Shown piece after piece: positions 1,462 through 23,612 of a stretch of 23,612 nt of DNA. The notes beneath the pieces were generated by a model. The model did not search any database. It had not been told where the DNA came from and saw only the letters and a list, made by a program, of their open reading frames with translations. Within the stretch, counting starts at the first letter, position 1; each line of letters begins with the position of its first letter. A program made the translations under genes and the position numbers. Origin of the DNA: a virus (Duplodnaviria; Heunggongvirae; Uroviricota; Caudoviricetes); the IMG/VR virus record IMGVR_UViG_2728369591_000007; one strand, written 5' to 3'.

Positions 1462-1607
1462 GTCTACTAAAGTCTTTCAAAACCCCTTATAATCCGCGTA
1501 TTAAAGCCCCGTTCGTCTTTTGACGTCTACTAAAGTCCCTCAAAATCTACGGTCAGATGGGGGTACTTATGGGGGTATTTGCTGTTCGGTTTAGTGGAGG
1601 TACCCCC
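1462..1607. repeat. Candidate integrase arm-type binding sites between tRNA and int
   Basis: Direct repeats GTCTACTAAAGTCTTTCAAAAC (1462-1483) and GTCTACTAAAGTCCCTCAAAAT (1525-1546); GGGGGTA at 1559-1565 and 1571-1577, with an inverted TACCCCC at 1601-1607 overlapping the int RBS; a related TTTACTAAAGTA lies just after the int stop at 2849-2860. Confidence 0.5.
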
Positions 1608-1609
1608 AA

Positions 1610-2824: not shown

Positions 2825-3133
2825 AACAACTGGACAAGTATACAGAGGTTTACTAAAGTATAGGGGAGTAGATTGATAAAAACTCACAGAGGATTGCTAT
2901 TTAACAGTTAGCCCTGGAGAAGGGCAATCGCTCTTTTATAAACGAAGGTGTATTGAGCCTTCTACGCTGCTGAAAAGCGGAATGTTCTTTAACAGGCTTT
3001 GGCGCTGACAAAGCGCAATTGTTCTTTAAAACTACTGGATGTCACGCCTAATAGCGTGATCCTGCCGAAATGCAGGGTAGCTCTACCCTTGTGGAGCAAA
3101 CAAACCAAAACAATCTGACTATCTTTTATAAAA

Positions 3134-3251: not shown

Positions 3252-3455
3252 ATGGCTAATTACAATTCATTAATTCGTCTCTCTGAAGTTCAAAGGCGAA
3301 CTGGTTATAGCAAAGCATGGATTTATCGTCTTATTAGTCAGGGGAGGTTCCCTAAACAGGTAAAAATTGGAAGTCGGGCAATTGCTTTTGTTGAGTCTGA
3401 AATAGATGAATGGATTGAGAAGTGTATATTAGAATCTAGAGACGAGGTGGCCTGA
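3252..3455 (+). CDS. alpA: AlpA-family DNA-binding transcriptional regulator (prophage excisionase-like), 67 aa
   Basis: Translation MANYNSLIRLSEVQRRTGYSKAWIYRLISQGRFPKQVKIGSRAIAFVESEIDEWIEK is a typical AlpA-like HTH; positioned right after the integrase. Confidence 0.8.
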   Translation: MANYNSLIRLSEVQRRTGYSKAWIYRLISQGRFPKQVKIGSRAIAFVESEIDEWIEKCILESRDEVA

Positions 3456-4904: not shown

Positions 4905-5338
4905 TACCCGTCCAGAAGAAGACATTTTCACTGGCTGGCATGTCGCCAAAATCCAGAAATATGACGGCAAAGTCAGGCATTAATACAGCAGATACAAGCA
5001 AAGTTTATCATTTGCTGGTGGTCGGAACGGATGCCTTAACCATACCAGAAATCTCGGGCGATGATATTAGCATTGAGAAGGTCAGCGGCTGCGCCAGAAA
5101 ATTTCTGGTCGTAGATGATGTCTTCCGCTCGTGTAGTGACTCCACAAAAACATTCGTCCACGCGCGTGACGTTAACGAAATGAGCGCGATGTACTGTGCT
5201 TCTGGTTCTTCCAATAGTGAGTTTTCGGAGTCCATAAAAAAGAGCTTGCCGTTATGCGGCAACACGGTTTATGGTTATAAGGCACCTCATAAAACGGGTG
5301 CCGGGTTTCGCAGCCCGGAAATGTACGAGGCGACACAT

Positions 5339-5360
5339 GACGCGCCGAGCGTCTTTTTTT
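5339..5360 (+). terminator. Candidate intrinsic terminator (short GC hairpin plus T7 run)
   Basis: GACGC-GCCGA-GCGTC followed by TTTTTTT. Confidence 0.5.
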
Positions 5361-5377
5361 GTGCCGTTAGCCAGACT

Positions 5378-5406
5378 CACACTTTTTTCAGTGATGTGGT
5401 TATAAT
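5378..5406 (+). promoter_or_regulatory. Candidate sigma70 promoter (perfect -10 TATAAT at 5401-5406, weak -35)
   Basis: TATAAT directly downstream of the terminator and upstream of a structured leader and the RBS-led ORF at 5563; the -35 match is poor, so the call is tentative. Confidence 0.3.
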
Positions 5407-5562
5407 CCGCGTCGCTTGCAAAATTATGGTGGGCTGGACAGGGCAGCCGAAAGGCTGGCCGGTTTCCTTGTACGCCGGTACTGCGAACTCTGTTCAGTCC
5501 ACCACCAGCGAGTTTCGCAGCTCCGGTGGTGGGAAGAATTCCCAGTACAAGGAGGCTGCCAC

Positions 5563-7580: not shown

Positions 7581-7944
7581 AAATGCAGAAATGGCGCTTA
7601 GCTCCGCAATCGGAGAGCAGGTGGCAAAGATTGCTGGTGCTGTGTGGATTCATAACCTTCATTCTACTGGTGAAGAGAAAATGGCAATTCAGACGCCAGA
7701 GGGACGCACCATTACTACATCTCTGAAGCCGTCAGATGTTTGTGATCTGATTTGCGCATTCATGTACCCAGCAATGAGGACTGCCCACGGCGATAAGTGG
7801 AAACTTGCGACAACCGCTGAATTTGATATGTGGCTAAACAATGATGGCATGCTGACTGATTACGGAATAACCAAGTGGCAGATGCTGGTTAGCCATATCG
7901 CAAACGCTATAGACCACGTGGGGTACGGTGATGCGAAACATTGA
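7573..7944 (+). CDS. hypothetical protein, 123 aa
   Basis: 8-bp overlap with the upstream gene; its own stop overlaps the primase start. Confidence 0.6.
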   Translation: MRENAEMALSSAIGEQVAKIAGAVWIHNLHSTGEEKMAIQTPEGRTITTSLKPSDVCDLICAFMYPAMRTAHGDKWKLATTAEFDMWLNNDGMLTDYGITKWQMLVSHIANAIDHVGYGDAKH

Positions 7945-10687
7945 TCTTATCCGTCAGGTTATCAGTGCGTCTGAAAACAACTGGCCTCATGTGCTGGGCT
8001 GCCTGAACATAAATGTCCCTGACTCTCCGCGCCGTCATGCTCCCTGCCCTGCATGTGGGGGCAAAGATCGATTCCGGTTCGATGACAACGGGCGCGGTAG
8101 CTTCATCTGTAATCAGTGCGGCGCTGGTGATGGGCTGGATTTAATTAAACGCGTAAATAACTGCGACACAACAGAGGCGGCGCTTCTTGCCGCTGATGTT
8201 CTGGGTATTGATTACCGGACAACGGAAACACCAGAAGCCACCAGCCAGAAACGGGAACAACTGGAAACCGAGCGCCAGCGACGCGAACAGGAGCGCCTGA
8301 AAAGGGCAGAGAAGGACGAACAACAAAGACGGGATACGTTTTCCCGTCAGTTTGATGACATGCGCAGAAAGGCTGTAAACGGCAAATCTGATTATTTGGT
8401 TGCGAAAGGGGTAGGTGATTTTACATTCCCCGTGTTGCCCGATGGATCTCTGTTGCTGGCGCTGGTGGATAAATCCGGCGCAGTAACAGCAGCACAGACT
8501 ATTACCTCACATGGTGAAAAAAGACTCCTGACAGGTTCAGCAAAGCGGGGGGCATATCACGCCATAAACGCACCAGAAACAACACAGAGCATCTTAATCG
8601 CAGAAGGGCTGGCAACGGCATTATCTGCCCATTTAATTCGTCCAGAGGCGCTGACAGTGGCGGCGATTGATGCCGGGAACCTGTTATATGTCGCCCAGGT
8701 ACTGCGGGATAAATTTCCTTCAGCACAAATCATCATTGCTGCGGATAACGACCACAGCGAAGGAAGACAAAACACGGGGAGAATAGCAGCAGAAAAAGCA
8801 GCTTTATCTGTTTCTGGATGGGTGGCATTACCCCCGACAGATCACAAAGCAGACTGGAATGATTACCACCAAAAACACGGCATTAAATGCGCCACAGAAG
8901 CGTTCAATAAGTCAATGTACCAACCACAGGGTAATGGCGTGAAACAGGAGCCACAGACCATTGAGGGAAGCGATTTTAAGGTTATGGATACCGACCCACT
9001 GAAACCAAGAATAGAAAGCCGCGAGGATGGTATTTATTGGGTATCTCCGAGAGCTGACAGCCAGAGTGGAGAAATCATCAATAACGAAAGCTGGTTATGT
9101 TCTCCGTTAAGCGTTATCGGTACTGGCAGAGACGATAAAGACCAGTATCTCATTCTTCGCTGGCTGTCGTTTGGTTCTGAAACGCCGACAACCGCTGCCA
9201 TTCCACTGGCTGATATTGGTGAACGTGAAGGATGGCGCACACTTAAAGCTGGTGGGGTAAATGTCACGACCAAAAGCAGCCTCAGAGCAATGCTGGCAGA
9301 CTGGCTACAACGCAGTGGCTCTCGTGAATTGTGGCGTGTTGCTCATGCCACTGGCTGGCAATGCGGAGCGTACATCATGCCTGATGGGGAAATCATCGGA
9401 ACACCTGAAAATCCTGTGCTGTTCAGCGGGAGAAGCTCAGCCGCAGCCGGATATACCGTCTCAGGGAGCGCGCAAAGCTGGCGTGATAACGTGGCGCGTC
9501 TGGCCTTTGGTAACTATTCAATGATGACCGGGATCGGCGCAGCACTGGCAGCACCATTGATTGGGCTGGTGGGCGCTGACGGGTTCGGCATTCATTTCTA
9601 TGAGCAGTCGAGCGCAGGTAAGACCACCACGGCAAACGTGGCGAGCAGCTTATACGGCAACCCTGATTTACTGCGGCTGACGTGGTACGGAACCGCGCTG
9701 GGGCTGGCAAATGAGGCCGCCGCCCACAATGACGGACTAATGCCGCTTGATGAAGTTGGTCAGGGCGCTGATCCTGTCAGCGTTTCACAGTCTGCCTATG
9801 CGTTATTTAACGGTGTAGGGAAACTGCAAGGCGCTAAAGATGGTGGAAACCGGGATCTAAAACGTTGGCGTACAGTGGCAATCAGCACCGGAGAAATGGA
9901 TTTAGAAACATTTATCGCTACTTCCGGGCGAAAAACCAAAGCCGGGCAACTGGTGCGACTGCTGAATATTCCGTTGACTAAAGCAGTACGCTTTCACGAT
10001 TACCAGAACGGAAAACAGCACGCAGACGCACTGAAAGACGCTTACCAGCATCACCACGGCGCGTCCGGGCGTGAGTGGATTAAATGGCTGGCAGACCACC
10101 AGCAACAGGCTATTAAAACCGTTCGTGATTGCGAAAGCAGATGGAGAAGCCTGATCCCATCCGATTATGGTGAGCAGGTTCACCGTGTAGCCGCGCGATT
10201 TGCCATTCTGGAGGCCGCATTGTTGTTAGGCGAGGTTGTAACAGGCTGGGATGCTCAGACATGCCGTGATGCGATACAGCACAGCTATAACGCATGGTTG
10301 CGCGAGTTCGGCACAGGTAACAAAGAGCATCAGCAGATTATTGAACAAACGGAGGCATTTCTTAATGCCTATGGGCTTAGCCGTTTTGCACCATTTCCAT
10401 ACAGCCCGGCAGATTTGCCCATCAAAGATTTAGCCGGATACCGTCAGCGTGGAGAACATGACGAAAGCCCAATGATTTTCTACACATTCCCGGCCACATT
10501 TGAAAAGGAGATCGCATGTGGTTTCAACGCAAAACAGTTTGCTGAAGTGTTGAAAAAAGCCGGGATGCTAACCCCACCAAACAGCGGTCGTGGATACCAA
10601 AGAAAATCACCACGTATTCAGGGACGACAAATAAACGTTTATGTACTCAATTACCAGCCAGGAGATTATAACTCATCTGAAGAATGA
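7928..10687 (+). CDS. replicative primase-helicase, P4 alpha-like (zinc ribbon + TOPRIM + P-loop NTPase), 919 aa
   Basis: Zinc ribbon CPACGG-x17-CNQCG; TOPRIM-like IIAEGLATALSAH and IIIAADNDHSEG; Walker A-like SSAGKTT and Walker B-like LMPLDEVG; iteron cluster immediately downstream. Confidence 0.85.
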   Translation: MMRNIDLIRQVISASENNWPHVLGCLNINVPDSPRRHAPCPACGGKDRFRFDDNGRGSFICNQCGAGDGLDLIKRVNNCDTTEAALLAADVLGIDYRTTETPEATSQKREQLETERQRREQERLKRAEKDEQQRRDTFSRQFDDMRRKAVNGKSDYLVAKGVGDFTFPVLPDGSLLLALVDKSGAVTAAQTITSHGEKRLLTGSAKRGAYHAINAPETTQSILIAEGLATALSAHLIRPEALTVAAIDAGNLLYVAQVLRDKFPSAQIIIAADNDHSEGRQNTGRIAAEKAALSVSGWVALPPTDHKADWNDYHQKHGIKCATEAFNKSMYQPQGNGVKQEPQTIEGSDFKVMDTDPLKPRIESREDGIYWVSPRADSQSGEIINNESWLCSPLSVIGTGRDDKDQYLILRWLSFGSETPTTAAIPLADIGEREGWRTLKAGGVNVTTKSSLRAMLADWLQRSGSRELWRVAHATGWQCGAYIMPDGEIIGTPENPVLFSGRSSAAAGYTVSGSAQSWRDNVARLAFGNYSMMTGIGAALAAPLIGLVGADGFGIHFYEQSSAGKTTTANVASSLYGNPDLLRLTWYGTALGLANEAAAHNDGLMPLDEVGQGADPVSVSQSAYALFNGVGKLQGAKDGGNRDLKRWRTVAISTGEMDLETFIATSGRKTKAGQLVRLLNIPLTKAVRFHDYQNGKQHADALKDAYQHHHGASGREWIKWLADHQQQAIKTVRDCESRWRSLIPSDYGEQVHRVAARFAILEAALLLGEVVTGWDAQTCRDAIQHSYNAWLREFGTGNKEHQQIIEQTEAFLNAYGLSRFAPFPYSPADLPIKDLAGYRQRGEHDESPMIFYTFPATFEKEIACGFNAKQFAEVLKKAGMLTPPNSGRGYQRKSPRIQGRQINVYVLNYQPGDYNSSEE

Positions 10688-10712
10688 GATTCTTCATGTG
10701 CGTAGAAAAGGT

Positions 10713-10823
10713 GTTGGTTCAGTTGGTTCAGTTGGTTCAATTTGTAAAGAGTATTGTTTTATAAGGATTTTATTCTTTTTATTGAACCAACACTGAACCA
10801 ACAACACGGTATTTTGAACCAAC
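10713..10823. repeat. Iteron cluster 1 (candidate ori): 3 tandem GTTGGTTCA, AT-rich spacer, 3 inverted TGAACCAAC
   Basis: GTTGGTTCA at 10713-10721, 10722-10730, 10731-10739; TGAACCAAC at 10783-10791, 10794-10802, 10815-10823; begins 26 bp after the primase stop. Confidence 0.7.
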
Positions 10824-11143
10824 ACAATGTGACTGAATTGATGCGCACAACACCTGGCTGGCATCAGAGAGTGTTTTACGAGACTTTCGTAAAATCCTGT
10901 GTACAAGGGCGTGACGTTTTTGAAAGTGAGCACTACGAAATTTTCGTAGTTCAAAAAACAGCCTCTGAGAAGTTGTTATGCCTGTTCAGCAAACCATCCG
11001 CATAGCTGATCGCGAATCAAATTACCAATGGAGCCAGAAGCAAGGGCAGAACTGAAAAGCGCCTGCCGTGAAGAGTAATGCGACACCATAAATATAGTTT
11101 TTAGAGTCCATAAAAAACCTGTCAAAACCTGACACACAGAACG

Positions 11144-11449: not shown

Positions 11450-11911
11450 ATGGAACTAAAATTTATTGATAACCCTGTGCGATTACAGGCCTTTCTTAAC
11501 GAGCCAGGCAATACCGAAAATATTGTTGAGCCGGGGCACACGTACTACATCAAGCCTGATGCGGTATATCTCGGCATCTACGAAGGATTAGTGCTGGCTG
11601 GCGTTCATGAAGTGCGTAACTTCTGGCATAGCGTTGTTGAATGCCATGCGGTGTACGACCCCGGATTCCGTGGTGAATATGCACTGCAAGGGCATCGATT
11701 ATTCTGCAAATGGCTTCTCGAAAACTCACCATTCCTTAACAGCATTACCATGGTTCCTGACACCACCAAATACGGACGGGCAATTATCCGTTTGCTTGGC
11801 GCTACCCGTGTTGGTCACCTTGATGATGCTTATATCAGATGTGGTAAACCCGTCGGCGTAACGCTTTATCAGTTAACTCGGCAACAATATAAGGAATTCA
11901 GCGAATGTTAA
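11450..11911 (+). CDS. hypothetical protein, 153 aa (first gene of cargo cassette)
   Basis: Co-directional with, and overlapping, the next gene; protein-like sequence; no family recognised. Confidence 0.6.
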   Translation: MELKFIDNPVRLQAFLNEPGNTENIVEPGHTYYIKPDAVYLGIYEGLVLAGVHEVRNFWHSVVECHAVYDPGFRGEYALQGHRLFCKWLLENSPFLNSITMVPDTTKYGRAIIRLLGATRVGHLDDAYIRCGKPVGVTLYQLTRQQYKEFSEC

Positions 11912-12582
11912 TTACCCACATAGCTCATAAACATCTCAATCGTGCCGTATACGAAAAAGGCGGTGATGGTGGTGCCTCTAAAGCTCAGGCGAAGGCCCAG
12001 CAGCAGGCAATTGATTTGCAGCGCGAGCAGTGGAATACGGTGATGAATAATCTCAAGCCGTATGCAGAAGTCGGATTGCCTGCTTTACAACAACTACAAG
12101 GACTGATGACTCTGGAAGGGCAGAATAAAGCCGCGAATGATTTCTTTGGTTCTGGTTTATATAAAACACAGGCAGATCAGGCCCGTTATCAGAACCTTGT
12201 CTCAGCAGAAGCTACCGGGGGGCTTGGCTCAACAGCTACCAGTAACCAGTTATCTTCCATTGCGCCCATGCTTTATAACAATTGGCTTAGTGGGCAAATG
12301 CAAAATTATGGAAACCTGCTAAATGTCGGGATGAATGCGGCATCAGGGCAGGCAACAGCAGGGCAAAACTACGCCAATAATACCGGACAACTCTTGCAGG
12401 GGCTTGGCGCTATTCGTGCAGGTCAGGCGCAGCAGCCATCCAGTCTTGCGCGTGGTATTGGTGGGGCAGCATCAGGCGCTTTAGCGGGTGCGCAACTTGG
12501 TTCCGTTGTTCCTGGAATAGGTACTGCGGCAGGCGCTATTGGTGGTGGGCTTATTGGTCTTGTTGGGGGGCTTGGATTCTAA
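11905..12582 (+). CDS. Gln/Gly-rich protein with C-terminal glycine-zipper hydrophobic segment, 225 aa (ejection/pilot-protein-like)
   Basis: C-terminus GIGGAASGALAGAQLGSVVPGIGTAAGAIGGGLIGLVGGLGF; stop overlaps the next start (TAATG). Confidence 0.6.
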   Translation: MLITHIAHKHLNRAVYEKGGDGGASKAQAKAQQQAIDLQREQWNTVMNNLKPYAEVGLPALQQLQGLMTLEGQNKAANDFFGSGLYKTQADQARYQNLVSAEATGGLGSTATSNQLSSIAPMLYNNWLSGQMQNYGNLLNVGMNAASGQATAGQNYANNTGQLLQGLGAIRAGQAQQPSSLARGIGGAASGALAGAQLGSVVPGIGTAAGAIGGGLIGLVGGLGF

Positions 12583-13901
12583 TGGCGACATGGCAACTTG
12601 GCGGGCTGCCTAGCATGGCACCGCAAAATGATAATGCTCCTCGTTCTTCCGTTCCTCAGCCTGTGCAGTATCAGCAGCAGCCAAACGTAGGTTTAATGGC
12701 GCTACAGGGGCTAAGAGGCGTTGCTGAGATTAATCAGCAGGCGCAAATTTCCCAGCAGCTAAAAGAATATCAGGCACAGTTGGGTAGTGCGGTAGCTAAT
12801 AATGATCGTGTTGGCGTGCAGAAGTTAATGGCCCAGTATCCCCAGTTTATGGCTGATTCTCAAAAACAGATGGGATTCATTGATGCTGAGCAAAATCGGC
12901 AGACCGCTGACGCTGCCATGAATCTGCGTCTTGCGTCACAAACTGGAGATCCACTGACCATGCAGAAGGCCATTCAGCAGGCAAATCCAGTATTACAGCG
13001 ATTTGGTCTTCCTGCTGAAGAGGTTTATCAGTCTTGGCAGAATGACCCACAGGAATTCAACAGAATCACTGACCTCATCCACCTCCATGCTGATCCAAAT
13101 AGTTACTTTAGTGTTCAAGAGAAGCAGCAAGGGCAGAGTATTGCACAGCAGAACGCAGATACATCTGCATATAATGCTCAGGTTAATGCGGAACAGGGTA
13201 ATCGGCGTCTCGATATGGAGCAGTTCAAAGTCCTATCCGATAACCAGCTACGCACGAGAGAAATGGTTCTGAAAGCACGACTTGGACGTGCTCAAAATGA
13301 CATCGAGAGAGACAAGCTCAATGCTGAACTGAGCAAGGTACAGCAGGCGAAAGTGGAGAAGATGAACGATAAAATTAATACTGTTGCAGGTAACATCGAC
13401 TCCTTGAACTCTGCGCTTGAAGTGGGTCATGAACTGGCGGGAATTGTAGGGAAACATCCTTCGGCCGTTACCCGTTCGCAGAACTATAACCCCCTGACGC
13501 TGGGGTTTGGATTCCTTCCTGATGTAGCAGAAGACACACGAAGCCTACGCGCCAAAGCTGATGAATACAACCTAAAGGTTATTCTGCCTAGCCTCAAAGG
13601 GACTTTTGGCTCTAACCCAACCGAAGGGGAAAGGGCTGCCCTTATGCAATCTCAAAATGGCATTAAGTCAGCAACCAGCAATGAGGCATTTTTGCGAGAG
13701 TTGAATAAAGCGCAGGACGTAATTATTCGAATGCAGAAACGACAGATTGCCGGGCTCGGTATTCCTGTAACCAAATCTAAGGACGAAGAAACTGATACTA
13801 AAATGCTGTTGCAGGATCCTTCTCTGGTTAAGGATTATGTGACCGCACATGGCTATCTGCCGGAAAGTTACTATCAGGCAAAACTTAAGGGATGGCAATG
13901 A
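12582..13901 (+). CDS. Gln-rich predicted coiled-coil protein, 439 aa (internal-virion/ejection-protein-like)
   Basis: Long Q/A/N-rich helical-looking sequence; translationally coupled to both flanking genes. Confidence 0.6.
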   Translation: MATWQLGGLPSMAPQNDNAPRSSVPQPVQYQQQPNVGLMALQGLRGVAEINQQAQISQQLKEYQAQLGSAVANNDRVGVQKLMAQYPQFMADSQKQMGFIDAEQNRQTADAAMNLRLASQTGDPLTMQKAIQQANPVLQRFGLPAEEVYQSWQNDPQEFNRITDLIHLHADPNSYFSVQEKQQGQSIAQQNADTSAYNAQVNAEQGNRRLDMEQFKVLSDNQLRTREMVLKARLGRAQNDIERDKLNAELSKVQQAKVEKMNDKINTVAGNIDSLNSALEVGHELAGIVGKHPSAVTRSQNYNPLTLGFGFLPDVAEDTRSLRAKADEYNLKVILPSLKGTFGSNPTEGERAALMQSQNGIKSATSNEAFLRELNKAQDVIIRMQKRQIAGLGIPVTKSKDEETDTKMLLQDPSLVKDYVTAHGYLPESYYQAKLKGWQ

Positions 13902-16618
13902 TGGCACAACTGACAGAAAAACAGAAAGCCTATTCCCGTCATCTCGATGAAAAATATGGTTTCCCATCAGGGACGATGGAAACATTAGTTGGCAATGAAT
14001 CTAGTGGTAACGGAAGTGCCGAGTCACCGAAAGGAGCTAGAGGATTTGCTCAACTGATGCCCTCAGTAATGAGTGATGCTGGTTATCGTGGAACAGATCC
14101 GCGCTCACTGCCATTTGAAAAGCAAATGGATATCGCAGCAAACCATCTCAATAAAGGAATGAAGCGATTTGGTGATATAGGTATGGCATTGGCTGGGTAT
14201 AATTCTGGCTATGCTCGTATTAATGCCGTAAGAAACGGTAAATCTACACTGCCAGATGAAACGGCTAATTACGTAAGTAAATTTGCAGATGCCGGAATAA
14301 TCCCTGATGACAGTGAAATCTTGCAGTTTGCACAAACCAGTCAACATCGCAATCTTCAGCAGCCTGACTACTCAGAGCTTGATAAAGAAATCTCTCAGGT
14401 GGGAGATATTTCTGCATGGGAAGCAAAACGTCAGCAATTTAAGAACATAGAAGCAGGACTACCAACAGCCAGTTCATGGGAGCAGAAAAGAGCTCATTTT
14501 CTCGCCGATGAAAATGCCGGGGAACCGCAGCAGCAAGTAGCCAAGTCTAACCTTAATCCTGAGATGGAATATCTTTCGCCAGGACTGAAAGCTGCGCCAG
14601 AGCAGATGGCCAGAGGGATTGCTAATATACCGTTTGATGTAATGGACGCAGGCGTGGGGGTAGTCAATGCGGCGCAATCAGCCGGAGCATGGGCAGCTCA
14701 GAAGCTTGGTGTGGGTGATGGTACATACACGCCCATATCACCTGTCTTTCGCCCAGTAGACCAACCTACAGATCCATACGCGCAGGCTGGTGAGCAGCTA
14801 GCACCTTACCTTATTACAGGATTAGGTGCAGGAAAGGCAGCTACCGCAGCTTCTTCAGTTGCCAACGCTCCACGTGCTGAACGTGCGGCCACAAAGGTGG
14901 CTAGTATGTTGGCAGAAAACCTGCCAGGTACATTGGTGAACGCCCAAAAGAACGGGCAGATCAGCCCAGAAGACCTAGCAAAAGAGACAGGTATTGGCCT
15001 AGCAGGATCGCTAGGAGCACGCGCTTTAATAAAGAGCGGACAGACAGCCAGTGACGTAATGCGAGATGTATTGCGGAGTAATACAAATCAATCAAGCTAT
15101 GTGTTAGGGGCAGCAAATACTCTGGAAACCGCCAATGATGTATCGAAAGCAGCGCGTTCTGCCGTAGGCCGAGAGCATATCGCATCGCAGGCATCAAACG
15201 TCAGAGATGATGTCGCTAAGGCGGCGAAAATCACTGGTATTAATATCAACACCCTGACGCCTGGAATGCGCTCAGGTAGTCGTGGAATTGCCCAAGCAGA
15301 AGGTGTTCTGGCATCAACTCCTGGGAATGTTCAGGATGCTCACCTTACGGCCTTCAATGAAATATCCTCAAAGTTGAATAAGCAGTTGTCTGATTTCGGT
15401 GCTGAGTCTGGAAGCGCATCAGAAAAAAGCGCAGCAATTAAAGAGCGCATCATCGCGAGCCTCAGTGATATGAAAACAGCAGAGAATATGGCATGGGCAG
15501 AACTGCGAAGCACGATGCCACGCGAAAGGATGAAAATGAGTAATGGGATGGCTGTCGTCCAAGCAGAAAAAGCAGCCAATGTTCCACTCAGCCCGGAGAT
15601 GAAACAGTTTCAGGCTGCCAATAACCAAGGTGGCGGCATAACCTTCGACGGGATGAAGGCATGGCGTGCTAAGTTTGCTGATGCTGAACAAGCAAACACC
15701 CGGGCAGGTAAGGCCAATGCCGCCCGGGTTGCCGGAGAAATGCGCAGAGCTATCACTGATGACATGCGCATCATGGCTGAAAAAGGAAACTTCCTCACAG
15801 AATGGCAGAAAGCTAACGATCTCTCTAAAAGTTACATTATCGCCAAACAAAATGCCGAATCTGTTTTTGGTCGAGATCTCGCATCAGACGCTATGGTAAG
15901 AAAAGGTGCCGATACGCTTAAGGCATCCGCAAACACTGGAACGGGAGCTTTTCACCGTCTTATCTCCGCGCTGCCGGAAGCAGAACGCCAACCAGCAATA
16001 GCATCTATTCTTCAGCATGCTGTGGCGCAGGGAGAGAAGGGAGGAATCGGTGAAGAGTCTGGTATCCAGTATTTTGCCAAGCTCATGACCCAGCAGAATG
16101 TAAACGCCATCAGTCGTCATGCGCCAGATCTCGGTAGAATGATGAAAGAGTTCGGTGTACTCGCTAAAGCCAGCACCAGACCGCAGCGATACGTAGAGCG
16201 CACGGGAAGAACAACTGAGGCTCTCAAAACGCTCGATTCAGGCCTTCCAAAGATCGTCGGCGTGATTATGAACGGAGTTCAACAGTCAGGTGCGATCGCT
16301 GGAGGCTTTGGCGGTGGTGTAATTGGTTCGATTAGTGGTTTGGTTGCTGGTGGCGCGCTGAGAAATACTGTGGCTAAGATTGGGGCGACAAGAAGTGGTC
16401 GATATGCGATAGAGAAAGCCGTTCAGGAAGCTACAAAAGCAGTGCGCGCAGGGGCATCACCAGCAGCGATCGCCGCAGCAGAGAAACGATTTTCGGCCAA
16501 TAAAATTGCCATGAAAGCAATTCGTGATGCCGTTGGGGCTGAAGAATTCGTGAAACTGACAAGGGCCGGGATTGTAGCTACCCTCAGTGGCATGAAAGAT
16601 GTTAGCGAATGGGAATAG
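13892..16618 (+). CDS. large protein with N-terminal lytic transglycosylase (SLT) domain and C-terminal glycine-rich hydrophobic segment, 908 aa
   Basis: SLT family signature near the N-terminus: catalytic E-S in GNESSGN, GFAQLMPS, and AGYNSGYAR; C-terminal GAIAGGFGGGVIGSISGLVAGGAL; architecture recalls podovirus internal core proteins of the T7 gp16 class. Confidence 0.7.
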   Translation: MAMMAQLTEKQKAYSRHLDEKYGFPSGTMETLVGNESSGNGSAESPKGARGFAQLMPSVMSDAGYRGTDPRSLPFEKQMDIAANHLNKGMKRFGDIGMALAGYNSGYARINAVRNGKSTLPDETANYVSKFADAGIIPDDSEILQFAQTSQHRNLQQPDYSELDKEISQVGDISAWEAKRQQFKNIEAGLPTASSWEQKRAHFLADENAGEPQQQVAKSNLNPEMEYLSPGLKAAPEQMARGIANIPFDVMDAGVGVVNAAQSAGAWAAQKLGVGDGTYTPISPVFRPVDQPTDPYAQAGEQLAPYLITGLGAGKAATAASSVANAPRAERAATKVASMLAENLPGTLVNAQKNGQISPEDLAKETGIGLAGSLGARALIKSGQTASDVMRDVLRSNTNQSSYVLGAANTLETANDVSKAARSAVGREHIASQASNVRDDVAKAAKITGININTLTPGMRSGSRGIAQAEGVLASTPGNVQDAHLTAFNEISSKLNKQLSDFGAESGSASEKSAAIKERIIASLSDMKTAENMAWAELRSTMPRERMKMSNGMAVVQAEKAANVPLSPEMKQFQAANNQGGGITFDGMKAWRAKFADAEQANTRAGKANAARVAGEMRRAITDDMRIMAEKGNFLTEWQKANDLSKSYIIAKQNAESVFGRDLASDAMVRKGADTLKASANTGTGAFHRLISALPEAERQPAIASILQHAVAQGEKGGIGEESGIQYFAKLMTQQNVNAISRHAPDLGRMMKEFGVLAKASTRPQRYVERTGRTTEALKTLDSGLPKIVGVIMNGVQQSGAIAGGFGGGVIGSISGLVAGGALRNTVAKIGATRSGRYAIEKAVQEATKAVRAGASPAAIAAAEKRFSANKIAMKAIRDAVGAEEFVKLTRAGIVATLSGMKDVSEWE

Positions 16619-16768
16619 ACGCTCTAACTAACAAAACCATAATAGCCAAGGACGGCATACTGATATTGAGCCAACTATCAAAATTCCATATCACATTACG
16701 AGCCTGTGGCTTACATTCGCTTACAGTGATGATAATTTATAACCACGCAATTCTTAGGTGAGATTATC

Positions 16769-17467
16769 ATGATTAAAAATCTTCTTTTAATATTATCCCT
16801 GTCATTATTGGCTGGATGCGTACAAAAACCGTTAGTAACGGTCAATGCTTTATCTTCCGGGCAATCTGTCGGTAAGAAGTTCTTGATCATCCCCGCAAGC
16901 CAAGAACTTTGGAACACCAAACAGATTGAATACACTCAAATAGCTACGGTAGTAGCCGCCAGTTTATCAAGCCAAGGATATACACAAGTTAAAGATGAAA
17001 AATTGGCTGACCAGGTAATTCTCTTGAACTTTTTGAGAAGCGGGGCCATTTCAAATACTCGTAATGTAACCATCCCAATATACGGGCAAACTGGTGTGAG
17101 CTCAGCAACAACGTACGGAAACTCGAACACCACGTTCAATAGTTATGGTGGTGGCTACGGTACAGCTAATACCACTGGAACGGCAACAACAGTTTATACG
17201 CCTACTTATGGAATTACTGGCGCGTATAACACAACTGTGACGGACACGTTCTACGGCGCAGGGGTGATACTCCAGTCGTTTGATGCCAAGGCCTATCTCA
17301 ATAATAGGCAGATTAATATGTTATGGAAAGTTGGTAGCTCAGTCGTCTCGCAACAGTCTGATGGAATTGCTGATTACAAGGGGTTGGCGAGAATAGCCGC
17401 TAGCTATGCCGGGAAAAATACAGAAGGTGATATAACTTTTAATGTTGACCCTAAAGCACCAAATTAA
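16769..17467 (+). CDS. lipoprotein, 232 aa, Thr/Gly/Tyr-rich low-complexity mature region
   Basis: Signal peptide with lipobox MIKNLLLILSLSLLAGC; RBS AGGTGA at spacing 8; intrinsic terminator immediately downstream. Confidence 0.7.
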   Translation: MIKNLLLILSLSLLAGCVQKPLVTVNALSSGQSVGKKFLIIPASQELWNTKQIEYTQIATVVAASLSSQGYTQVKDEKLADQVILLNFLRSGAISNTRNVTIPIYGQTGVSSATTYGNSNTTFNSYGGGYGTANTTGTATTVYTPTYGITGAYNTTVTDTFYGAGVILQSFDAKAYLNNRQINMLWKVGSSVVSQQSDGIADYKGLARIAASYAGKNTEGDITFNVDPKAPN

Positions 17468-17473
17468 CTAATA

Positions 17474-17495
17474 AGCCCGGTACGCCGGGCATTTT
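17474..17495 (+). terminator. Intrinsic terminator after the lipoprotein gene
   Basis: GCCCGG-TACG-CCGGGC hairpin followed by ATTTTG. Confidence 0.6.
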
Positions 17496-17680
17496 GCCCC
17501 CTATTATTCATGAATCGCTTTTTCTAGAAGGTATGCGACAAACGTTAAGTGACATTGCCTACACATTCGGGGCGGGATTTCAAATCCGCTCCCAGTTGAT
17601 GGGGCCGTTACAGTACGCGCATATCCGCTTTATGTGAAACAGGAAGATTTTTCTGATATCACTGCCACAGCAAAACACCA

Positions 17681-17703
17681 ATTTCGAGACAAGTACGCGC
17701 GCG
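17681..17703. repeat. CG-alternating 23-bp repeat, copy A
   Basis: ATTTCGAGACAAGTACGCGCGCG; followed by the 20-bp palindrome GTTGCAAAAAATTTTGCAAC at 17714-17733. Confidence 0.6.
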
Positions 17704-17966
17704 AGGGGTATCAGTTGCAAAAAATTTTGCAACTACGTCCGACCAATACACACACGATGGCGGGGGATACCATAAAACTGTTCTCTACATGAGACAGAGT
17801 GGTGGTGATGTGTTGATTATCGGCCTATATGCGCACAGGACGCGCTATGACAATGTTTTATGCGGGTACACCAATCACATGTATCTGGTGTGATAAATCG
17901 CGTTACATGACCTCTCATGTTGTGCTGGTGGTTATCACGACGTTCTGAATCTGGCTTTTGTCTGAT

Positions 17967-17989
17967 ATTTTGCGACAAGTACGCGCGCG
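17967..17989. repeat. CG-alternating 23-bp repeat, copy B
   Basis: ATTTTGCGACAAGTACGCGCGCG; shares the upstream TCTGATAT with copy A. Confidence 0.6.
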
Positions 17990-18326
17990 TAACATCGAAA
18001 TTATCGGATGGCGTATGTTGCTGGCAAGATAAAGTCGGCGTAATACAAAGGCGTTACTTGATAGCAGCAAGATTACAACAATGGTTGTTGAATTTGAGCG
18101 ATGTAAGGAATTGATTTAGGGAGGCGCTGATGGCTAAAAAGTTCCACTACCAGCGGATGAATGCGCCAGCGATGGCCGTTTGGTAGTAAAAGAGGAGCCA
18201 TTCCTCAATCAGTTGAATACATTATGCCAACTAAATGGGTGGGGGCACTGTGTGGGTATTCAGCGGTGACGGTATTTTTTAAGCCAAGGACTATCCGTAG
18301 CAGGGGGACTCATTTTGAAATATTTA

Positions 18327-18764
18327 TCATATGTAACTTATTATTTTAGATAAAGATTTCCAGTTAAAGAAAAAAGTTATCATTGATATAATCAAATATG
18401 CCCCTGCGAGTAGCAGGGCATAATAATCCAGAGGCAGATTGCTGACAACAGGGGCAAACATCGAGATCATTGCTAATAGGCAGGCTGTGATCAGCGTAGT
18501 TCCTGTATCAAAAAGCCCCTCAATAATGCCTTTTAGTACTCCGTTACTTTTTAGAGCGCCTACAATTCCCTTTGAACTATCAAAGCTACTTAGCATGGTG
18601 ACTGATGCCAAAACAAAACCAAAGAGAACTCCAGAAATAGTTGAAAGAGCACCAGCAGCCGAAATGACAGCATTGTGATCTAGGTCGTGTAAAAAATGGG
18701 CACCAGCAATAGCCATAGCTAGAGCAAACAATGACTTGGCAGCAAACAATTTCCGAGAACTCAT
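18327..18764 (-). CDS. small integral membrane protein, 145 aa, about four predicted transmembrane helices (candidate effector)
   Basis: Translation MSSRKLFAAKSLFALAMAIAGAHFL...LLAGAYLIISMITFFFNWKSLSKIISYI is dominated by hydrophobic segments; RBS AGGA 8 nt upstream; 12 bp downstream of the 361-aa gene on the same strand; AT-rich by eye. Confidence 0.7.
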   Translation of the reverse strand: MSSRKLFAAKSLFALAMAIAGAHFLHDLDHNAVISAAGALSTISGVLFGFVLASVTMLSSFDSSKGIVGALKSNGVLKGIIEGLFDTGTTLITACLLAMISMFAPVVSNLPLDYYALLLAGAYLIISMITFFFNWKSLSKIISYI

Positions 18765-18776
18765 AATGTATTCCTG

Positions 18777-19862
18777 TTACGTTTGACTAACCAAATAGTA
18801 CTGGGTTAGATACCTAAGGTTGTCATTCTTTGCTTGTAGCATAGCATTTTTAACGTCAGTATCGGTCGGATACCCATCTGCTTGGATAGGCACCATCTTC
18901 TTTACCGTAAGAACTTCGTCTACAAGACTTTTCTTCTTTTTATCGCCCTGAGCAACAACATTTGCTTTCTCAAAAGTTAAACGACCATCACCACCAGGGA
19001 ACTTTTCTAGCATCTCCTTAAGGCTTTTTTTAACGTCATCCTCAAGCCATCCCTTTGCTTTTCTTTTTAATGGAGAATGTCCGCGTAACGAAATAGTCAG
19101 GTGGCTTGAACTGGTGCCTCTGATCATCTCAATCATCTGATTCGCGAACATTCCATCGAGTTGATACTGTGCGGCATTGAAGTTTCTTGGGATGGCCACA
19201 GAAATCTCGCAGCTTCTTAGATTGGATCCAGTTTCGAGTAGTTCTTTGATGCTTTCTTCTTTCCAAATGGCTTCAAAAGAAACAGGGACTCCGCGATCAC
19301 TGGAGTTGAAAAGAAGGAAGGCTAAGTCACTATGGCGTGGACCTAAATGATTTAAAGACAATACTAGAATGTCTGTCTGAGGATAATAAATAAAGTATGT
19401 ACGTTCTGAAAGAGTCTTTGCCCCGGCTAGAGGGATTTTCTCTTCCACCCACTCTTTATCTGTAATATATGCCAGTGTTGCGCTTTTTCTTCTTCGAGAC
19501 ATGAATCCGAAGTAGGAGCCATCCTCGGGTGAGATGTCTAGAAAATGAATTTTAAGTTCTCTTTCACCAAAGTCTGCATAGTGGGTCATCTTGAAGTCTT
19601 TAGAACACCGATCATAGAGATTTTTAAAGGCCTCTGCGGTTAACCCCTTGTTACTAGTGCGAATATTCTCAGAGCTTGTGTAAAAGCCCACCCTTACAGA
19701 TTTCAAACTTTGATCTTTTGGTGCCACAGTCATTTGAGCTCCATTGTACTCTGCGATAGTTTTTGCACACCTTGAAATCAAAATCTCCATGTCAGTCACG
19801 AGAAAATAACTATGGATGAAACCCATCAAAGGCATTGAATACAGGTGGCTTTTGAGAATCAT
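18777..19862 (-). CDS. hypothetical soluble protein, 361 aa (possibly about 316 aa from an internal start); candidate sensor partner of the membrane protein
   Basis: Long minus-strand ORF with protein-like composition; an alternative ATG at MTVAPK has a better SD (GGAG); no family recognised; AT-rich by eye. Confidence 0.7.
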   Translation of the reverse strand: MILKSHLYSMPLMGFIHSYFLVTDMEILISRCAKTIAEYNGAQMTVAPKDQSLKSVRVGFYTSSENIRTSNKGLTAEAFKNLYDRCSKDFKMTHYADFGERELKIHFLDISPEDGSYFGFMSRRRKSATLAYITDKEWVEEKIPLAGAKTLSERTYFIYYPQTDILVLSLNHLGPRHSDLAFLLFNSSDRGVPVSFEAIWKEESIKELLETGSNLRSCEISVAIPRNFNAAQYQLDGMFANQMIEMIRGTSSSHLTISLRGHSPLKRKAKGWLEDDVKKSLKEMLEKFPGGDGRLTFEKANVVAQGDKKKKSLVDEVLTVKKMVPIQADGYPTDTDVKNAMLQAKNDNLRYLTQYYLVSQT

Positions 19863-20213
19863 CCTAACCTGGTGACGGTGGTTCGCATATCCTGATGGAT
19901 GATCAGTGATTAATCAATGCGCCAAGCAGATGTGTCTATGTGTTTGTTAATCATTGCATGACAGTAGATCGACATGGGAGATCACGTTATATAGTTGAAT
20001 TGTTAGGATATCCATGCACCGATCAACTGACTAGGCTGATGTGCTTTTTAGCAGGTGCCATATAGTAGTTAGGCGGTTCTGTGAAATGATTACTGTTCCA
20101 GCATAACTGCGGCATAAAGCGGTGCTATATAAGCTATTTGCTGGCGGATTTAGTCTTCACCGTTCATATATGTAGTGACTATTTGACAGAGTGTTAGTTC
20201 ACGGACACTTTTT

Positions 20214-20313
20214 GTTGGTTCAAAATGAGTTGATGTTGGTTCAATATTTTAGAAAAAACACAATAAAAACAACGCTCTTTACAAATTGAACCAACTGAAC
20301 CAACTGAACCAAC
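20214..20313. repeat. Iteron cluster 2 (crr-like second site), mirror image of cluster 1
   Basis: GTTGGTTCA at 20214-20222 and 20235-20243; TGAACCAAC tandem at 20287-20295, 20296-20304, 20305-20313; the spacer shares ATTTGTAAAGAG..TTGTTTT with cluster 1 in reverse complement. Confidence 0.7.
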
Positions 20314-20349
20314 ACCTTTTTGCTTATCTATATAATCTGAGAGGCAGAA

Positions 20350-21234: not shown

Positions 21235-21777
21235 ATGTACCAGCTAAAGATAACCATCCGAGACAGCAAACCACCTATATGGCGGCGTGTGCTGGTTCCA
21301 GAGCAAATCCCCTTTAGTAAACTTCATGCCGTGATCCAGTTAGCTTTTGGCTGGAATGACGAACACCTGTATATGTTCGAGAAAGGGCGTAAAGGTGATC
21401 CAGGTAGCGAGTATCGCGTATGGGGTGAGGATGAAAGCATGGGTAACGCGGCAATCACGCCACTATGGGCGGCGCTCCAGAATGAGGGTGACAAGCTGGT
21501 TTACACGTATGACTTTGGCGACTGGTGGGATTGCGTCATTGTGCTGGAGAAGCAAACACACGATACGAGTAATCAGCCCATTAGCTGCCTGCGTGGGAAA
21601 GGCACCACCCCGGCGGAAAACTCAGGCGGCTTGCATGGTTACAATGAATTGCTATTACAGGCCAGAGAGTCTGATAATCCTGAGCAGGCCGAGATCCACA
21701 ATTTCCTGATGCTGGATATTGAACGCCGGGTTTACGACCTGAGCCGCATCAACGACAGATTGCAGGCTATTAACTGA
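21235..21777 (+). CDS. pRiA4b ORF-3-like family protein, 180 aa
   Basis: Hallmark motifs YQLKITIRDSKPPIWRRVLVP...LHAVIQLAFGWNDEHLYMF and YTYDFGDWWDCVIVLE. Confidence 0.75.
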   Translation: MYQLKITIRDSKPPIWRRVLVPEQIPFSKLHAVIQLAFGWNDEHLYMFEKGRKGDPGSEYRVWGEDESMGNAAITPLWAALQNEGDKLVYTYDFGDWWDCVIVLEKQTHDTSNQPISCLRGKGTTPAENSGGLHGYNELLLQARESDNPEQAEIHNFLMLDIERRVYDLSRINDRLQAIN

Positions 21778-22129
21778 CCCGCATGTATTCACCTGATATT
21801 GCGTTGTCAGCGCCGCCAGTATCGCGCATAACAGCGCACTGACCGGGTAAACCGTAGCGCACGACCGTTGCGTTAGTATCACCGCCGCGCCGTATCTGGC
21901 GCGATTCATACACTGTCACCCGCTCAAGCAGTCCACCAGCAACCATGCTTTCCAGTGTGCGCCGGGTTGATTCGAGCTGGTGACGCTTATCGAACGACAC
22001 CATGCCATGAAGCAGGTAGGCCACACCCGACACATCGAACGGCGGCGCACCAATCTCACCAGTCACCCATTCGAGGTTATCCGGTTCAAAGTAGCTAAGT
22101 ATCTCTTTTTTGCGACTGGTCATTCTCAT
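21770..22129 (-). CDS. hypothetical protein, 119 aa (possible winged-helix-like)
   Basis: Protein-like composition; 3' end overlaps the 3' end of the ORF3-like gene by 8 bp in convergent orientation; weak RBS. Confidence 0.45.
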   Translation of the reverse strand: MRMTSRKKEILSYFEPDNLEWVTGEIGAPPFDVSGVAYLLHGMVSFDKRHQLESTRRTLESMVAGGLLERVTVYESRQIRRGGDTNATVVRYGLPGQCAVMRDTGGADNAISGEYMRVS

Positions 22130-22247
22130 GGCTGGCTGATTCCTTATTGTGGGATAGCACTATCATACAATAAGTGGGTTAAAGGGAGAGCGTTACCGCC
22201 TGATATGCTGTATGAATAACAACCAAATTTCAGGGGCGGAAAAAGAT

Positions 22248-22270
22248 ATGGGGGTACTTTTGGGGGTATC
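22248..22270. repeat. Second copy of the integrase-proximal GGGGGTA direct-repeat pair (candidate right-end arm sites)
   Basis: ATGGGGGTACTTTTGGGGGTATC matches ATGGGGGTACTTATGGGGGTATT at 1557-1579 with identical 12-bp spacing; TCCTATTATC, identical to tRNA positions 1428-1437, lies at 22331-22340. Confidence 0.5.
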
Positions 22271-22653
22271 TATAAAAAATGAACAATAAAAAAGGCAACA
22301 AAAACAAAGCTTATCGCCTATGTGTATTGTTCCTATTATCCCATTTAAATCAATAAGTTAGATAAGTGTGTGCCTAGATTTTCTTGCAGTTTGTCATTTG
22401 GGTACACACAGGGGACACAAAGCACAAAAGTGTGTACATTTGGTTTTGGTGTCCTCGTGTTTACTTCTTACCGTTGATATAAATTCACTTTCTTGTTGAC
22501 AAAAATTGTAAGCATGTCGAATGGCAATGTAGACATCGCTATTAGTTGTTTGGTAAGGTATTTATTGAGTGTAAACATAAAAACTTTATCAATATATGCT
22601 CAGACTGATGAGGTCAGTATTGATACTGATGTTTTCAAATTTTAGGCCATAAA

Positions 22654-23250
22654 ATGGCTGTCATTCCAATGTCTTACTCCCCTGCTACTGTAGCTCGTCG
22701 TTTTTCGATACTGGATGGAGTAACTATTCAGGGTGTGCTTTACCAGATCATCTGGGATCCAAAGACTCCGTTCGCTGCGGTAATCGAAGCTGCACCTTCT
22801 GTTATTGATGGTGATATTCGCCATAAGGTTGTTGCCACTCTGGAGCTTCAGCGTCGTTCACAGCTTGAAGGGGTGTTTGTCCGGAAATTCTGGGAAGAAC
22901 AGGACGTTGCTCAGATTGAAGGGATTGTTGTCGATGGTGCTGTACGTGATGTTAGCCTTGCTACGTTTGTTTATGAAACAATAGCCACAAAAGCAGGCGT
23001 TATACTATTAAGTGATAACGAGCAATATGAAGGAGGTAAAGCCCTCTGGCAGCATATAGCGCGTCGTTCAACGAATCTTAAGGTGTTTATCTTAGATACA
23101 GATTCCGCACGGTATTATCCGTTTGATGGTGATCGGATCTGCTATGATGGGGAAAGTATTCCTGAATCAGAAATCTGGAGTGAACATCCTGATCGAAACA
23201 AACACGGTGTTGTTCTTGTGGCCGAATCTGTTAATGGAAAAGCCGCATAA
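22654..23250 (+). CDS. hypothetical protein, 198 aa
   Basis: Long ORF with protein-like composition, preceded by a strongly AT-rich intergenic region; no family recognised; weak RBS. Confidence 0.55.
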   Translation: MAVIPMSYSPATVARRFSILDGVTIQGVLYQIIWDPKTPFAAVIEAAPSVIDGDIRHKVVATLELQRRSQLEGVFVRKFWEEQDVAQIEGIVVDGAVRDVSLATFVYETIATKAGVILLSDNEQYEGGKALWQHIARRSTNLKVFILDTDSARYYPFDGDRICYDGESIPESEIWSEHPDRNKHGVVLVAESVNGKAA

Positions 23251-23612
23251 TTTGCCAGCCGCATCGTGTTCTTGGAACTCTGACAGACCTGAGAGTTGGC
23301 AGAATAAACAGGGGATAACAGAACGGTTATCCCCTCAGTACTCTACTGCTCGATCAAACATTTGCTCCATAAAGGTTGGATCGCATGTCGATCTTTGCTG
23401 TAGGGGAATCTTTTATTTTTTTTCTTCTGTTCCATCAGTAATGTGTCGATTTCGTTGTTGACAATGCGCGTCACAGCGTGACGATAACGGTTTAGCGATG
23501 TATCACTGATATCCTGAGGCAGGCATAAACTGGTATCGGTTTTGATGCGTTCATTTATGCGGTAATGACTCCAACTTATTGATAGTGTTTTATGTTCAGA
23601 TAATGCCCGATG

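Follow-up and report, generated by a model that had tools for sequence, protein, structure and literature searches.

A probable attR of a Gram-negative PICI-type satellite island in the 3' end of thrW

The lambda attP carries the arm-type sites P1, P2 and P'1-3, and a heterobivalent tyrosine integrase bridges these arm sites and the core. Excision has reportedly been demonstrated experimentally for CP4-57, an island at ssrA with AlpA and IntA, in work said to be that of Trempy, Kirby and Gottesman from 1994, which PMC10111431 lists as its ref. 17. Six "attP arm sequence repeats" are annotated in the genome of P4 (NC_001609), five of which flank the core or abut the start of int, with the sixth located inside int. 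On the int strand of NC_001609, the landmarks of this site are as follows:

P arm: repeats TGGGGGCAcaaa and AGGGGGCAtatt
Core: 20 bp, ending in CGGCACCA
P' arm: repeats TGGGGGCAtaat and TGGGGGCAtctt
3923-3916: inverted repeat TGCCCCCA, immediately ahead of the ATG to which the start of the integrase described below aligns

According to the part of PMC7286903 that cites Piazzolla et al. (2006), P4 int is under negative regulation by Int and Vis. A four-zone gene plan has been described for the Gram-negative PICIs (PMC10111431), and those at tRNA-Thr have attRs with variable-length deletions that start from a fixed position in the acceptor stem (PMC10111431, section 19 and Supp. File 4). In the set of Mageeney et al. 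(2023; PMC10111431), damaged attR tRNA fragments occur in PICIs only and not in prophages, and the relevant passage of that paper, citing Williams (2002), states that attR damage may disable the tRNA upon excision. The reference tRNA-Thr Gram-negative PICIs are DdCI3937 and CnCIND14b (ref. 6 in PMC10111431), whose att sites were remapped (Supp. Files 3-4) with TIGER and were thus not retrieved via the arm motif considered here; both show a capitalised identity block, TCCTAT-TATC, followed by '-gcacca' or a larger gap (PMC10111431, Supp. File 4). The attP of helper-embedded PICIs contains a co-oriented doubled motif 81±2 bp upstream and 132±2 bp downstream of its centre (Mageeney et al. 2023, PMC10111431).

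The window analysed here, a stretch of 23,612 nt (IMG/VR record IMGVR_UViG_2728369591_000007), contains in order proA (1-1254), a tRNA-Thr(CGT) gene (1369-1444, ARAGORN) and an integrase gene (1610-2824), and as this is the gene order annotated at homologous loci, the tRNA is identified as E. coli thrW. With a probability of roughly 0.9, positions 22248-22343 represent the attR of a Gram-negative PICI-type satellite island of approximately 20.9 kb, which spans about 1438-22340 and owes its integration into the thrW 3' end to a P4-family tyrosine integrase that it encodes itself. The features concerned are:

1369-1444, + strand: thrW, tRNA-Thr(CGT), downstream of proA (ARAGORN, Rfam tRNA, RefSeq annotation of homologous loci)
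1428-1446, + strand: attL core, in which TCCTATTATC (1428-1437) is the identity block common with attR (sequence, exact search, alignment)
1462-1536, + strand: second repeat class, GTCTACTAAAGT, with two copies in the P' arm (1462-1473 and 1525-1536; repeat search)
1557-1579, + strand: P' arm tandem doublet, TGGGGGTA at 1558 and 1570 with a 12-nt period (motif count, annotated P4 spacing)
1601-1608, - strand: inverted fifth copy of TGGGGGTA, over the Shine-Dalgarno region and beside the GTG start of int (motif count)
1610-2824, + strand: int, P4-family tyrosine integrase of 404 aa (Pfam, homology to P4 Int)
22248-22270, + strand: P arm tandem doublet, TGGGGGTA at 22249 and 22261 (motif count, IMG/VR loci)
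22331-22343, + strand: attR core, TCCTATTATC at 22331-22340 followed directly by CCA at 22341-22343 (sequence and empty-site comparison)
22344-22360, + strand: first 17 nt of the native thrW 3' flank, TTTAAATCAATAAGTTA (empty-site and genome comparison)

In attL, thrW is intact, with its last 7 nt and the following flank supplied by the element. The P' doublet lies 114 nt past the CCA end of the tRNA, and the P doublet, co-oriented with it, 82 nt ahead of the attR core.

An earlier note on this DNA had described 22248-22270 as a copy of 1557-1579, which holds for a near copy but not for an exact one: the two sequences, ATGGGGGTACTTTTGGGGGTATC and ATGGGGGTACTTATGGGGGTATT respectively, are alike at 21 of 23 positions, and no 23-mer match with three or fewer mismatches arose in 100 shuffles. 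The half-site TGGGGGTA occurs six times in the window against 0.33 expected from shuffles, namely at 1558 and 1570 (+), 1601-1608 (-), 22249 and 22261 (+), and as a stray copy at 14655. The inverted copy at 1601-1608, which had escaped the earlier note, is a candidate site for Int autoregulation. The proposed equality of 22331-22340 with tRNA positions 1428-1437 is exact, TCCTATTATC being found at these two places (the first of them in thrW) and nowhere else in the window, and the chance expectation of about 0.05 given for this 10-mer was sound, shuffles yielding 0.02. Only the shortness of the 10-mer speaks for a chance resemblance, the probability of which is vanishingly small in view of the shuffle expectations for the 10-mer, the 8-mer and the 23-mer and of the fixed geometry kept in dozens of relatives.

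Sequence comparisons of empty sites, genome match ends and the junction of a circular contig agree in placing the right boundary of the element here, as had been suggested. In strains B771 and SW071614, which have no element at thrW, ...TCCTATTATCGGCACCA is followed directly by TTTAAATCAATAAGTTAGATAAG, the window sequence from 22344 onward; proBA-thrW continues at once with TTTAAATCAATAAGTTAGATAAGTGTGTGCC, and 1445-22343 is wholly absent. The comparison with empty thrW sites, proposed as a check, agrees in silico with this boundary. Strain A23 carries another prophage at thrW and shares its right flank with B771 and SW071614. At least 80% of the window is present in 41 of 5,426 complete E. coli genomes, and among the best-matching genomes listed the match ends at 22340, 22348 or 22360/61; in strain CB209, the DNA beyond the match end belongs to another island, which has a pseudo-integrase and dnd genes. 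The excised circular junction, also proposed as a check, has an in silico counterpart in IMG/VR contig 2617270975_000009 (L079 and L118; 21,415 bp), the perfect 391-bp terminal direct repeat of which gives it the topology of a 21,024-bp circle. This circle represents the same element (98-99% identical), carries an IS of ~1.3 kb at the place of window 11087-11091 and differs in part of its cargo; it joins window 22340 to 1428 via the intact core TCCTATTATCGGCACCATT. A related contig of about 12.8-12.9 kb with a 77-bp terminal overlap (L094) has the same junction. Such circular-topology contigs of the same and of a related element hint at excision, the former being from another strain and possibly a collapsed tandem array instead of an episome.

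Alternatively, the motif and the 10-mer could belong to a second element in tandem, of which they would form the left end and which has lost its integrase, with the first element ending elsewhere. Another island without an integrase beside thrW is indeed found right of 22360, and tandem arrays at thrW are common among the IMG/VR loci, but the doublet precedes the core at the distance of a P arm, whereas a left (P') arm would follow it. The right-hand island of the empty sites, moreover, stands against thrW without the doublet or 22248-22330, and the circle holds 22248-22340 within the first element, making this alternative very improbable. With 22248-22343 read as the attR of the first element, the boundary is also a junction with a second element without an integrase of its own, as the earlier note had offered as its other option, because what follows on the right is an older mosaic island lacking an integrase beside thrW. 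The degenerate-attR and second-element-junction readings are therefore both true and not mutually exclusive.

The full block common to attL, attB and the circular junction is TCCTATTATCGGCACCATT. In attR, positions 22340 and 22341 adjoin without the GGCA of the tRNA acceptor stem and discriminator, a loss that starts right after the TATC that ends TCCTATTATC, in keeping with the degenerate attR that had been proposed. Past this 4-nt gap, the tRNA copy resumes with CCA and the native thrW 3' flank (22341-22360), a continuation that had been overlooked. An uninterrupted 17-19-bp identity between attL and attR, as in a perfect direct repeat, is not found; the identity comprises 10 bp, the 4-nt gap and CCATT. 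The three sites read:

attB: ...GACTCCTATTATCGGCACCA / TTTAAATC
attL: ...GACTCCTATTATCGGCACCA / TTCAAACATC
attR: ...TTGTTCCTATTATC, 4-nt gap, CCA / TTTAAATC

Variants of attR with the same P arm were counted by searching junction-specific 33-mers against the 5,426 complete E. coli genomes. A 1-nt loss, ATCGCACCATT, is present in 217 genomes, the 4-nt loss of the window in 23 and the intact GGCACCA in three, while the 5-nt-loss attR of two IMG/VR loci (L093 and L103) has no match among these genomes. The IMG/VR attRs with quite different P-arm spacers are mostly TATCGCACCA, and deletion variants of 1, 4 and 5 nt are seen among relatives. As in other PICIs, the deletion in the attR tRNA fragment extends from a fixed acceptor-stem position, and the degeneracy of this attR is the usual PICI-type 'damage' and not a sign of decay.

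It is unlikely that this attR is a decayed remnant, in which the 4-nt deletion immobilised the element and turned a mobile satellite into a fixed, domesticated island. The absence of GGCA, the minority status of the window variant (23 genomes against 217 with the 1-nt loss) and the position of the deletion, which adjoins the putative crossover block and would change any core-type Int site to its right, would all be compatible with such decay. Variable deletions at exactly the same position are, however, normal for tRNA-Thr PICI attRs (PMC10111431), the identity block TCCTATTATC is intact, and int, alpA and the primase gene are all full-length open frames. The same P arm and the same 4-nt variant also occur beside another right flank (L009), so that this form is not bound to one right-flank context. 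Immobilisation is thus possible for the 4-nt variant, though not indicated, and this minority form may lower the efficiency of excision.

Both circles retain an intact GG, against approximately 99% of attRs that lack it, and together with the published identity block this points to a crossover inside TCCTATTATC. A less likely model, in which a single-G attP with the crossover in CACCATT makes the 1-nt-short attR a property of attP, was dropped as the main model because of the intact GG in both circular contigs and because the published identity block corresponds to TCCTATTATC. The native flank at 22344-22360 contains a perfect IHF consensus, AATCAATAAGTTA (22348-22360); this chromosomal copy is the sole one, none being found in the P or P' arm of the element itself. 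A promoter and terminator scan of 21700-22700 yielded nothing exceeding shuffle expectation, and an Rfam search found no family at the boundary.

The integrase of the element contains the Pfam domains Arm-DNA-bind_3 (1.4e-28), Phage_int_M and Phage_integrase, and shares 42% identity with P4 Int over its full length (E = 3e-116). It is accordingly a P4 Int homologue with an N-terminal arm-DNA-binding domain. The core, as in P4, is a tRNA 3' end repeated at both ends of the element (TCCTATTATC), and tandem arm pairs with the P4 spacing are found on both sides, along with an inverted copy at the int start; the P4 arm repeats carry the same motif (TGGGGGCA). With the first repeat set to position 15, the attP landmarks are:

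P4: P doublet at 15/27, CCA end at 110, P' doublet at 224/236, inverted copy at 265
Circle L079: P doublet at 15/27, CCA end at 113, P' doublet at 227/239, inverted copy at 270
Circle L094: P doublet at 15/27, CCA end at 111, P' doublet at 226/238, inverted copy at 269

The element is P4-like at its att site, but by gene content, as in a SatelliteFinder-type test, it is not a P4-like satellite, the sid, delta, psu, cI, epsilon and alpha families of P4 being absent from the Pfam hits in the 20 ORFs scanned.

Conservation of the motif among IMG/VR loci is circular, since these loci were retrieved via the motif itself. Its placement is not circular: in 33 loci with diverged spacers the doublet lies 80-83 nt before a thrW 3' fragment, in 53 the motif lies ~130 nt (107-131) past the start of the thrW 3' fragment, and in further loci it is found beside 3' fragments of other tRNAs. 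An independent test set comprised 80 loci picked by Int protein similarity only (63-98% identity, many Enterobacterales genera), the flanks of which stop short of the far (P) arm and cover the int-side (P') sites only. In 57 of these 80 loci, the strict doublet (-50 to -52 relative to the int start) is accompanied by the inverted copy at -7 to -9, and most of the remainder have slightly degenerate versions of the doublet or inverted copy. The inverted copy at -7 to -9 is found in 70 of the 80 relatives. Base 7 of the motif, compared between the doublet and the inverted copy, is T/T/T in 28 loci, C/C/C in 27 and mixed in one, and is hence concordant in 55 of 56 loci; it is T in all five copies of the window and C in all five P4 copies. 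This covariation fits a single protein that has coevolved with its sites and reads all copies, and in conjunction with the P4 annotation it suggests that the doublets are to be assigned to Int rather than to AlpA.

Mageeney et al. left binding by AlpA open for the analogous doubled motif of the helper-embedded PICIs (PMC10111431), and as an AlpA is also encoded by the present element, the TGGGGGTA doublet might be bound by this AlpA-type directionality factor, or by another element protein, and not by the arm domain of Int. This is quite improbable, as the P4 annotation treats the homologous repeats as attP arm repeats belonging to the Int system, the motif follows Int across elements with differing accessory genes, and it covaries with the copy beside the int start codon. 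AlpA would more plausibly bind the separate GTCTACTAAAGT repeats, which are confined to the int side apart from one copy upstream of alpA. With one mismatch or fewer, GTCTACTAAAGT has three matches against 0.05 expected, the third of which (2848-2859, one mismatch) is located just after int and upstream of alpA. No copy is present at the right end of the element, and the two int-side copies are kept in relatives. These repeats are candidate sites for the AlpA-type directionality factor.

In the free circle, the right end of the element would be joined to the left via TCCTATTATCGGCACCATT, giving a P4-type attP. By analogy with P4 and lambda biology, and in line with the covariation, the N-terminal arm domains of an Int tetramer would bind the four direct half-sites while its catalytic domains act on the core, and Int may repress its own gene through the inverted copy. 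Strand exchange would take place inside TCCTATTATC, and AlpA would direct excision, possibly at the GTCTACTAAAGT repeats. Upon integration, the intact tRNA 3' end borne by the element (GGCACCA) would complete thrW in attL, and the displaced chromosomal 3' end would fall in attR, with the PICI-typical deletion, here of 4 nt, directly after TATC. Excision would be expected to leave a thrW without GGCA, that is, a dead thrW. ARAGORN finds no tRNA in this predicted post-excision attB, thrW ...TCCTATTATC / CCATTTAAATC, whereas thrW is found in the intact model. A possible, though doubtful, extension is that the satellite's own integration inflicts the attR deletion just 3' of TATC. Excision would in that case yield a dead thrW and the island would be an addiction element, with the damaged attR and distal thrW fragments as footprints of repeated PICI integration and excision. 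The idea of integration damage and addiction is already contained in Williams (2002) and in the pertinent passage of Mageeney et al. (2023; PMC10111431), and if it were true, the population-level evidence and the test locus would be new, rather than the idea itself.

From 22361 onward, the window contains a mosaic island with no integrase beside thrW. In the empty-site strains this island stands directly against thrW, which indicates that the PICI was inserted between thrW and an older island. The genes of the latter include those for 198-aa and 543-aa hypothetical proteins, an HTH gene, a DUF3987 remnant, YfjI and YagK/YfjJ, as well as sugar-utilisation genes and a GTPase-Ag43 module; neither Pfam nor PADLOC gave a match for the 198-aa ORF on the right of the boundary. 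The window ends (~23576-23612) within a copy of IS1 that interrupts the gene for the 543-aa hypothetical protein, which is intact in strains without this IS1. In strain B771, no further thrW fragment or arm doublet occurs in the 40 kb downstream of thrW, which places the far end of the older island at a greater distance. The 17 nt past the CCA end of thrW (TTTAAATCAATAAGTTA) are kept in many genomes, even of other genera, and the DNA beyond them differs, making 22360/61 a second, separate island boundary, presumably the limit of att identity of another integrase.

At the far end of the thrW region, by yagP'/paoD, a longer thrW fragment of the K-12 ptwF type extends from the anticodon loop onward:

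2990-3060 of loci L204, L205 and L206: distal thrW fragment

A damaged distal fragment, TATCGCACCATTT, with 1 nt lost, is present in 116 genomes. In one genome with the K-12 gene names intF-yagN-yagM, the distal fragment beside intF, TATCCCATTAAAATC, has lost the same 4 nt as the attR of the window, and its flank runs on ...AGTTACCCCATATTTAAATACACC, the sequence adjoining yagP'/paoD. These damaged distal fragments would fit past integration and excision of a PICI before a prophage integrated.

The order of genes within the element matches the PICI four-zone plan of PMC10111431. The integration zone holds int and alpA, and int, alpA and the primase gene are co-oriented, with a putative origin downstream of the primase gene:

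3252-3455, + strand: alpA-type regulator, putative excisionase (Pfam Phage_AlpA, E = 7e-20)
7928-10687, + strand: primase with Zn-ribbon, Toprim and DUF927 domains (Pfam)

The primase gene is followed directly by GTTGGTTCA iterons (10706-10831), and the two make up the replication zone. Between 10706-10831 and 20186-20320 there is a 55-nt inverted repeat, 96% complementary and rich in GTTGGTTCA, with more iteron-like copies beside it. Its arms bracket a 9.5-kb late/cargo zone and are both kept in the circular relative, where the cargo between them differs, a layout that recalls P4 ori/crr. A dynamic zone is also present, as is a late zone of late genes captured from helpers. The former encodes AntA, DUF4222 and Ash proteins (Pfam) and contains isrK and C4 antisense RNA at 5282-5509. 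These two Rfam hits (69 and 81 bits, respectively) lie back to back in an 'ash family' ORF downstream of the AntA antirepressor gene, and the stretch looks like a P1/P7-type immunity RNA module. The late zone (11450-16618) encodes DUF2824, P22_gp7, Inj_translocase and a 908-aa SLT-domain protein (Pfam), which we take to be P22 gp14, gp7, gp20 and gp16, respectively. No capsid, portal or terminase genes were detected with this P22-type block (11450-16618), which fits the 'late gene capture' of Gram-negative PICIs (PMC10111431); we found no paper describing the capture of ejection proteins by PICIs. The region 16700-20200 is of low GC content (41-44%) and contains ORFs of 232 aa (+), 145 aa (-) and 361 aa (-), and PADLOC and Pfam gave no match for the ORFs at 16769-17467, 18327-18764 (-) and 18777-19862 (-). 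Other DNA occupies this place in the circular relative and in strain CH4784, identifying it as a variable accessory slot. A search of the whole element against 50,697 phage records returned short patches only, in P22-like and other phages, and no described phage or satellite.

The stretch 22248-22343 is a textbook-type attR of a P4-family/PICI integrase, with the known attR damage, and current understanding is unchanged by these results. Modest novelty is confined to the numbers of genomes with each attR variant, the covariation of T and C among the arm sites and the damage seen in distal thrW fragments. With the limits of the element fixed at ~1438-22340, a clean annotation becomes possible in which 22361 onward belongs to a different, older island. 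A sequence-only rule for P4-family/PICI islands can also be formulated, in which one TGGGGG(T/C)A doublet precedes a tRNA 3' fragment by ~82 nt and a second follows the start of the core by ~130 nt. This doublet rule holds from P4 across the Enterobacterales, all five sites switching together between T and C specificity, and the variant counts (217, 23 and 3 genomes) put numbers on the known 'attR damage'.

Among the known systems, lambda resembles the present element in that arm sites define its ends, and differs in the sequence, number and spacing of these sites, the arms of the window element also being without a perfect IHF consensus. CP4-57, similarly an island with a P4-like integrase and AlpA, occupies the 3' end of a small-RNA gene, which its excision is said to damage; the target gene and element content differ, and excision is experimental there and predicted for the element of the window. 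The attP of P4 (Pierson & Kahn 1987, J Mol Biol 196:487, as reported in the part of PMC7286903 that cites it) likewise combines a homologous integrase with a tRNA 3'-end core ending in CGGCACCA. In both, a TGGGGG(C/T)A tandem pair with a 12-nt period precedes the CCA end by 95-98 nt, another such pair follows 114 nt after it and an inverted copy stands against the int start, and the primase and two inverted iteron clusters found here recall P4 ori/crr. P4 differs in its target (leuX rather than thrW) and in base 7 of the repeat (C rather than T), while the present element has the gene set of a Gram-negative PICI and a damaged attR. The helper-embedded PICIs share the arrangement of the doublets, which lie 82 and 130 from the core start in the window, and differ in their motif (TGTATTGC), in their targets, which are prophage late genes, and in belonging to another integrase subclade. 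DdCI3937 and CnCIND14b differ from the window element in host genera, spacer sequences and cargo, the latter element being 20.9 kb in size with P22-type ejection genes and a 4-nt deletion. They have in common with it the identity block TCCTATTATC, the TGGGGGTA doublet in the attR arm (TGGGGGTAnnnnTGGGGGTA upstream), an attR deletion that starts directly after TATC and an int-side arm that begins ...tctactaaa...
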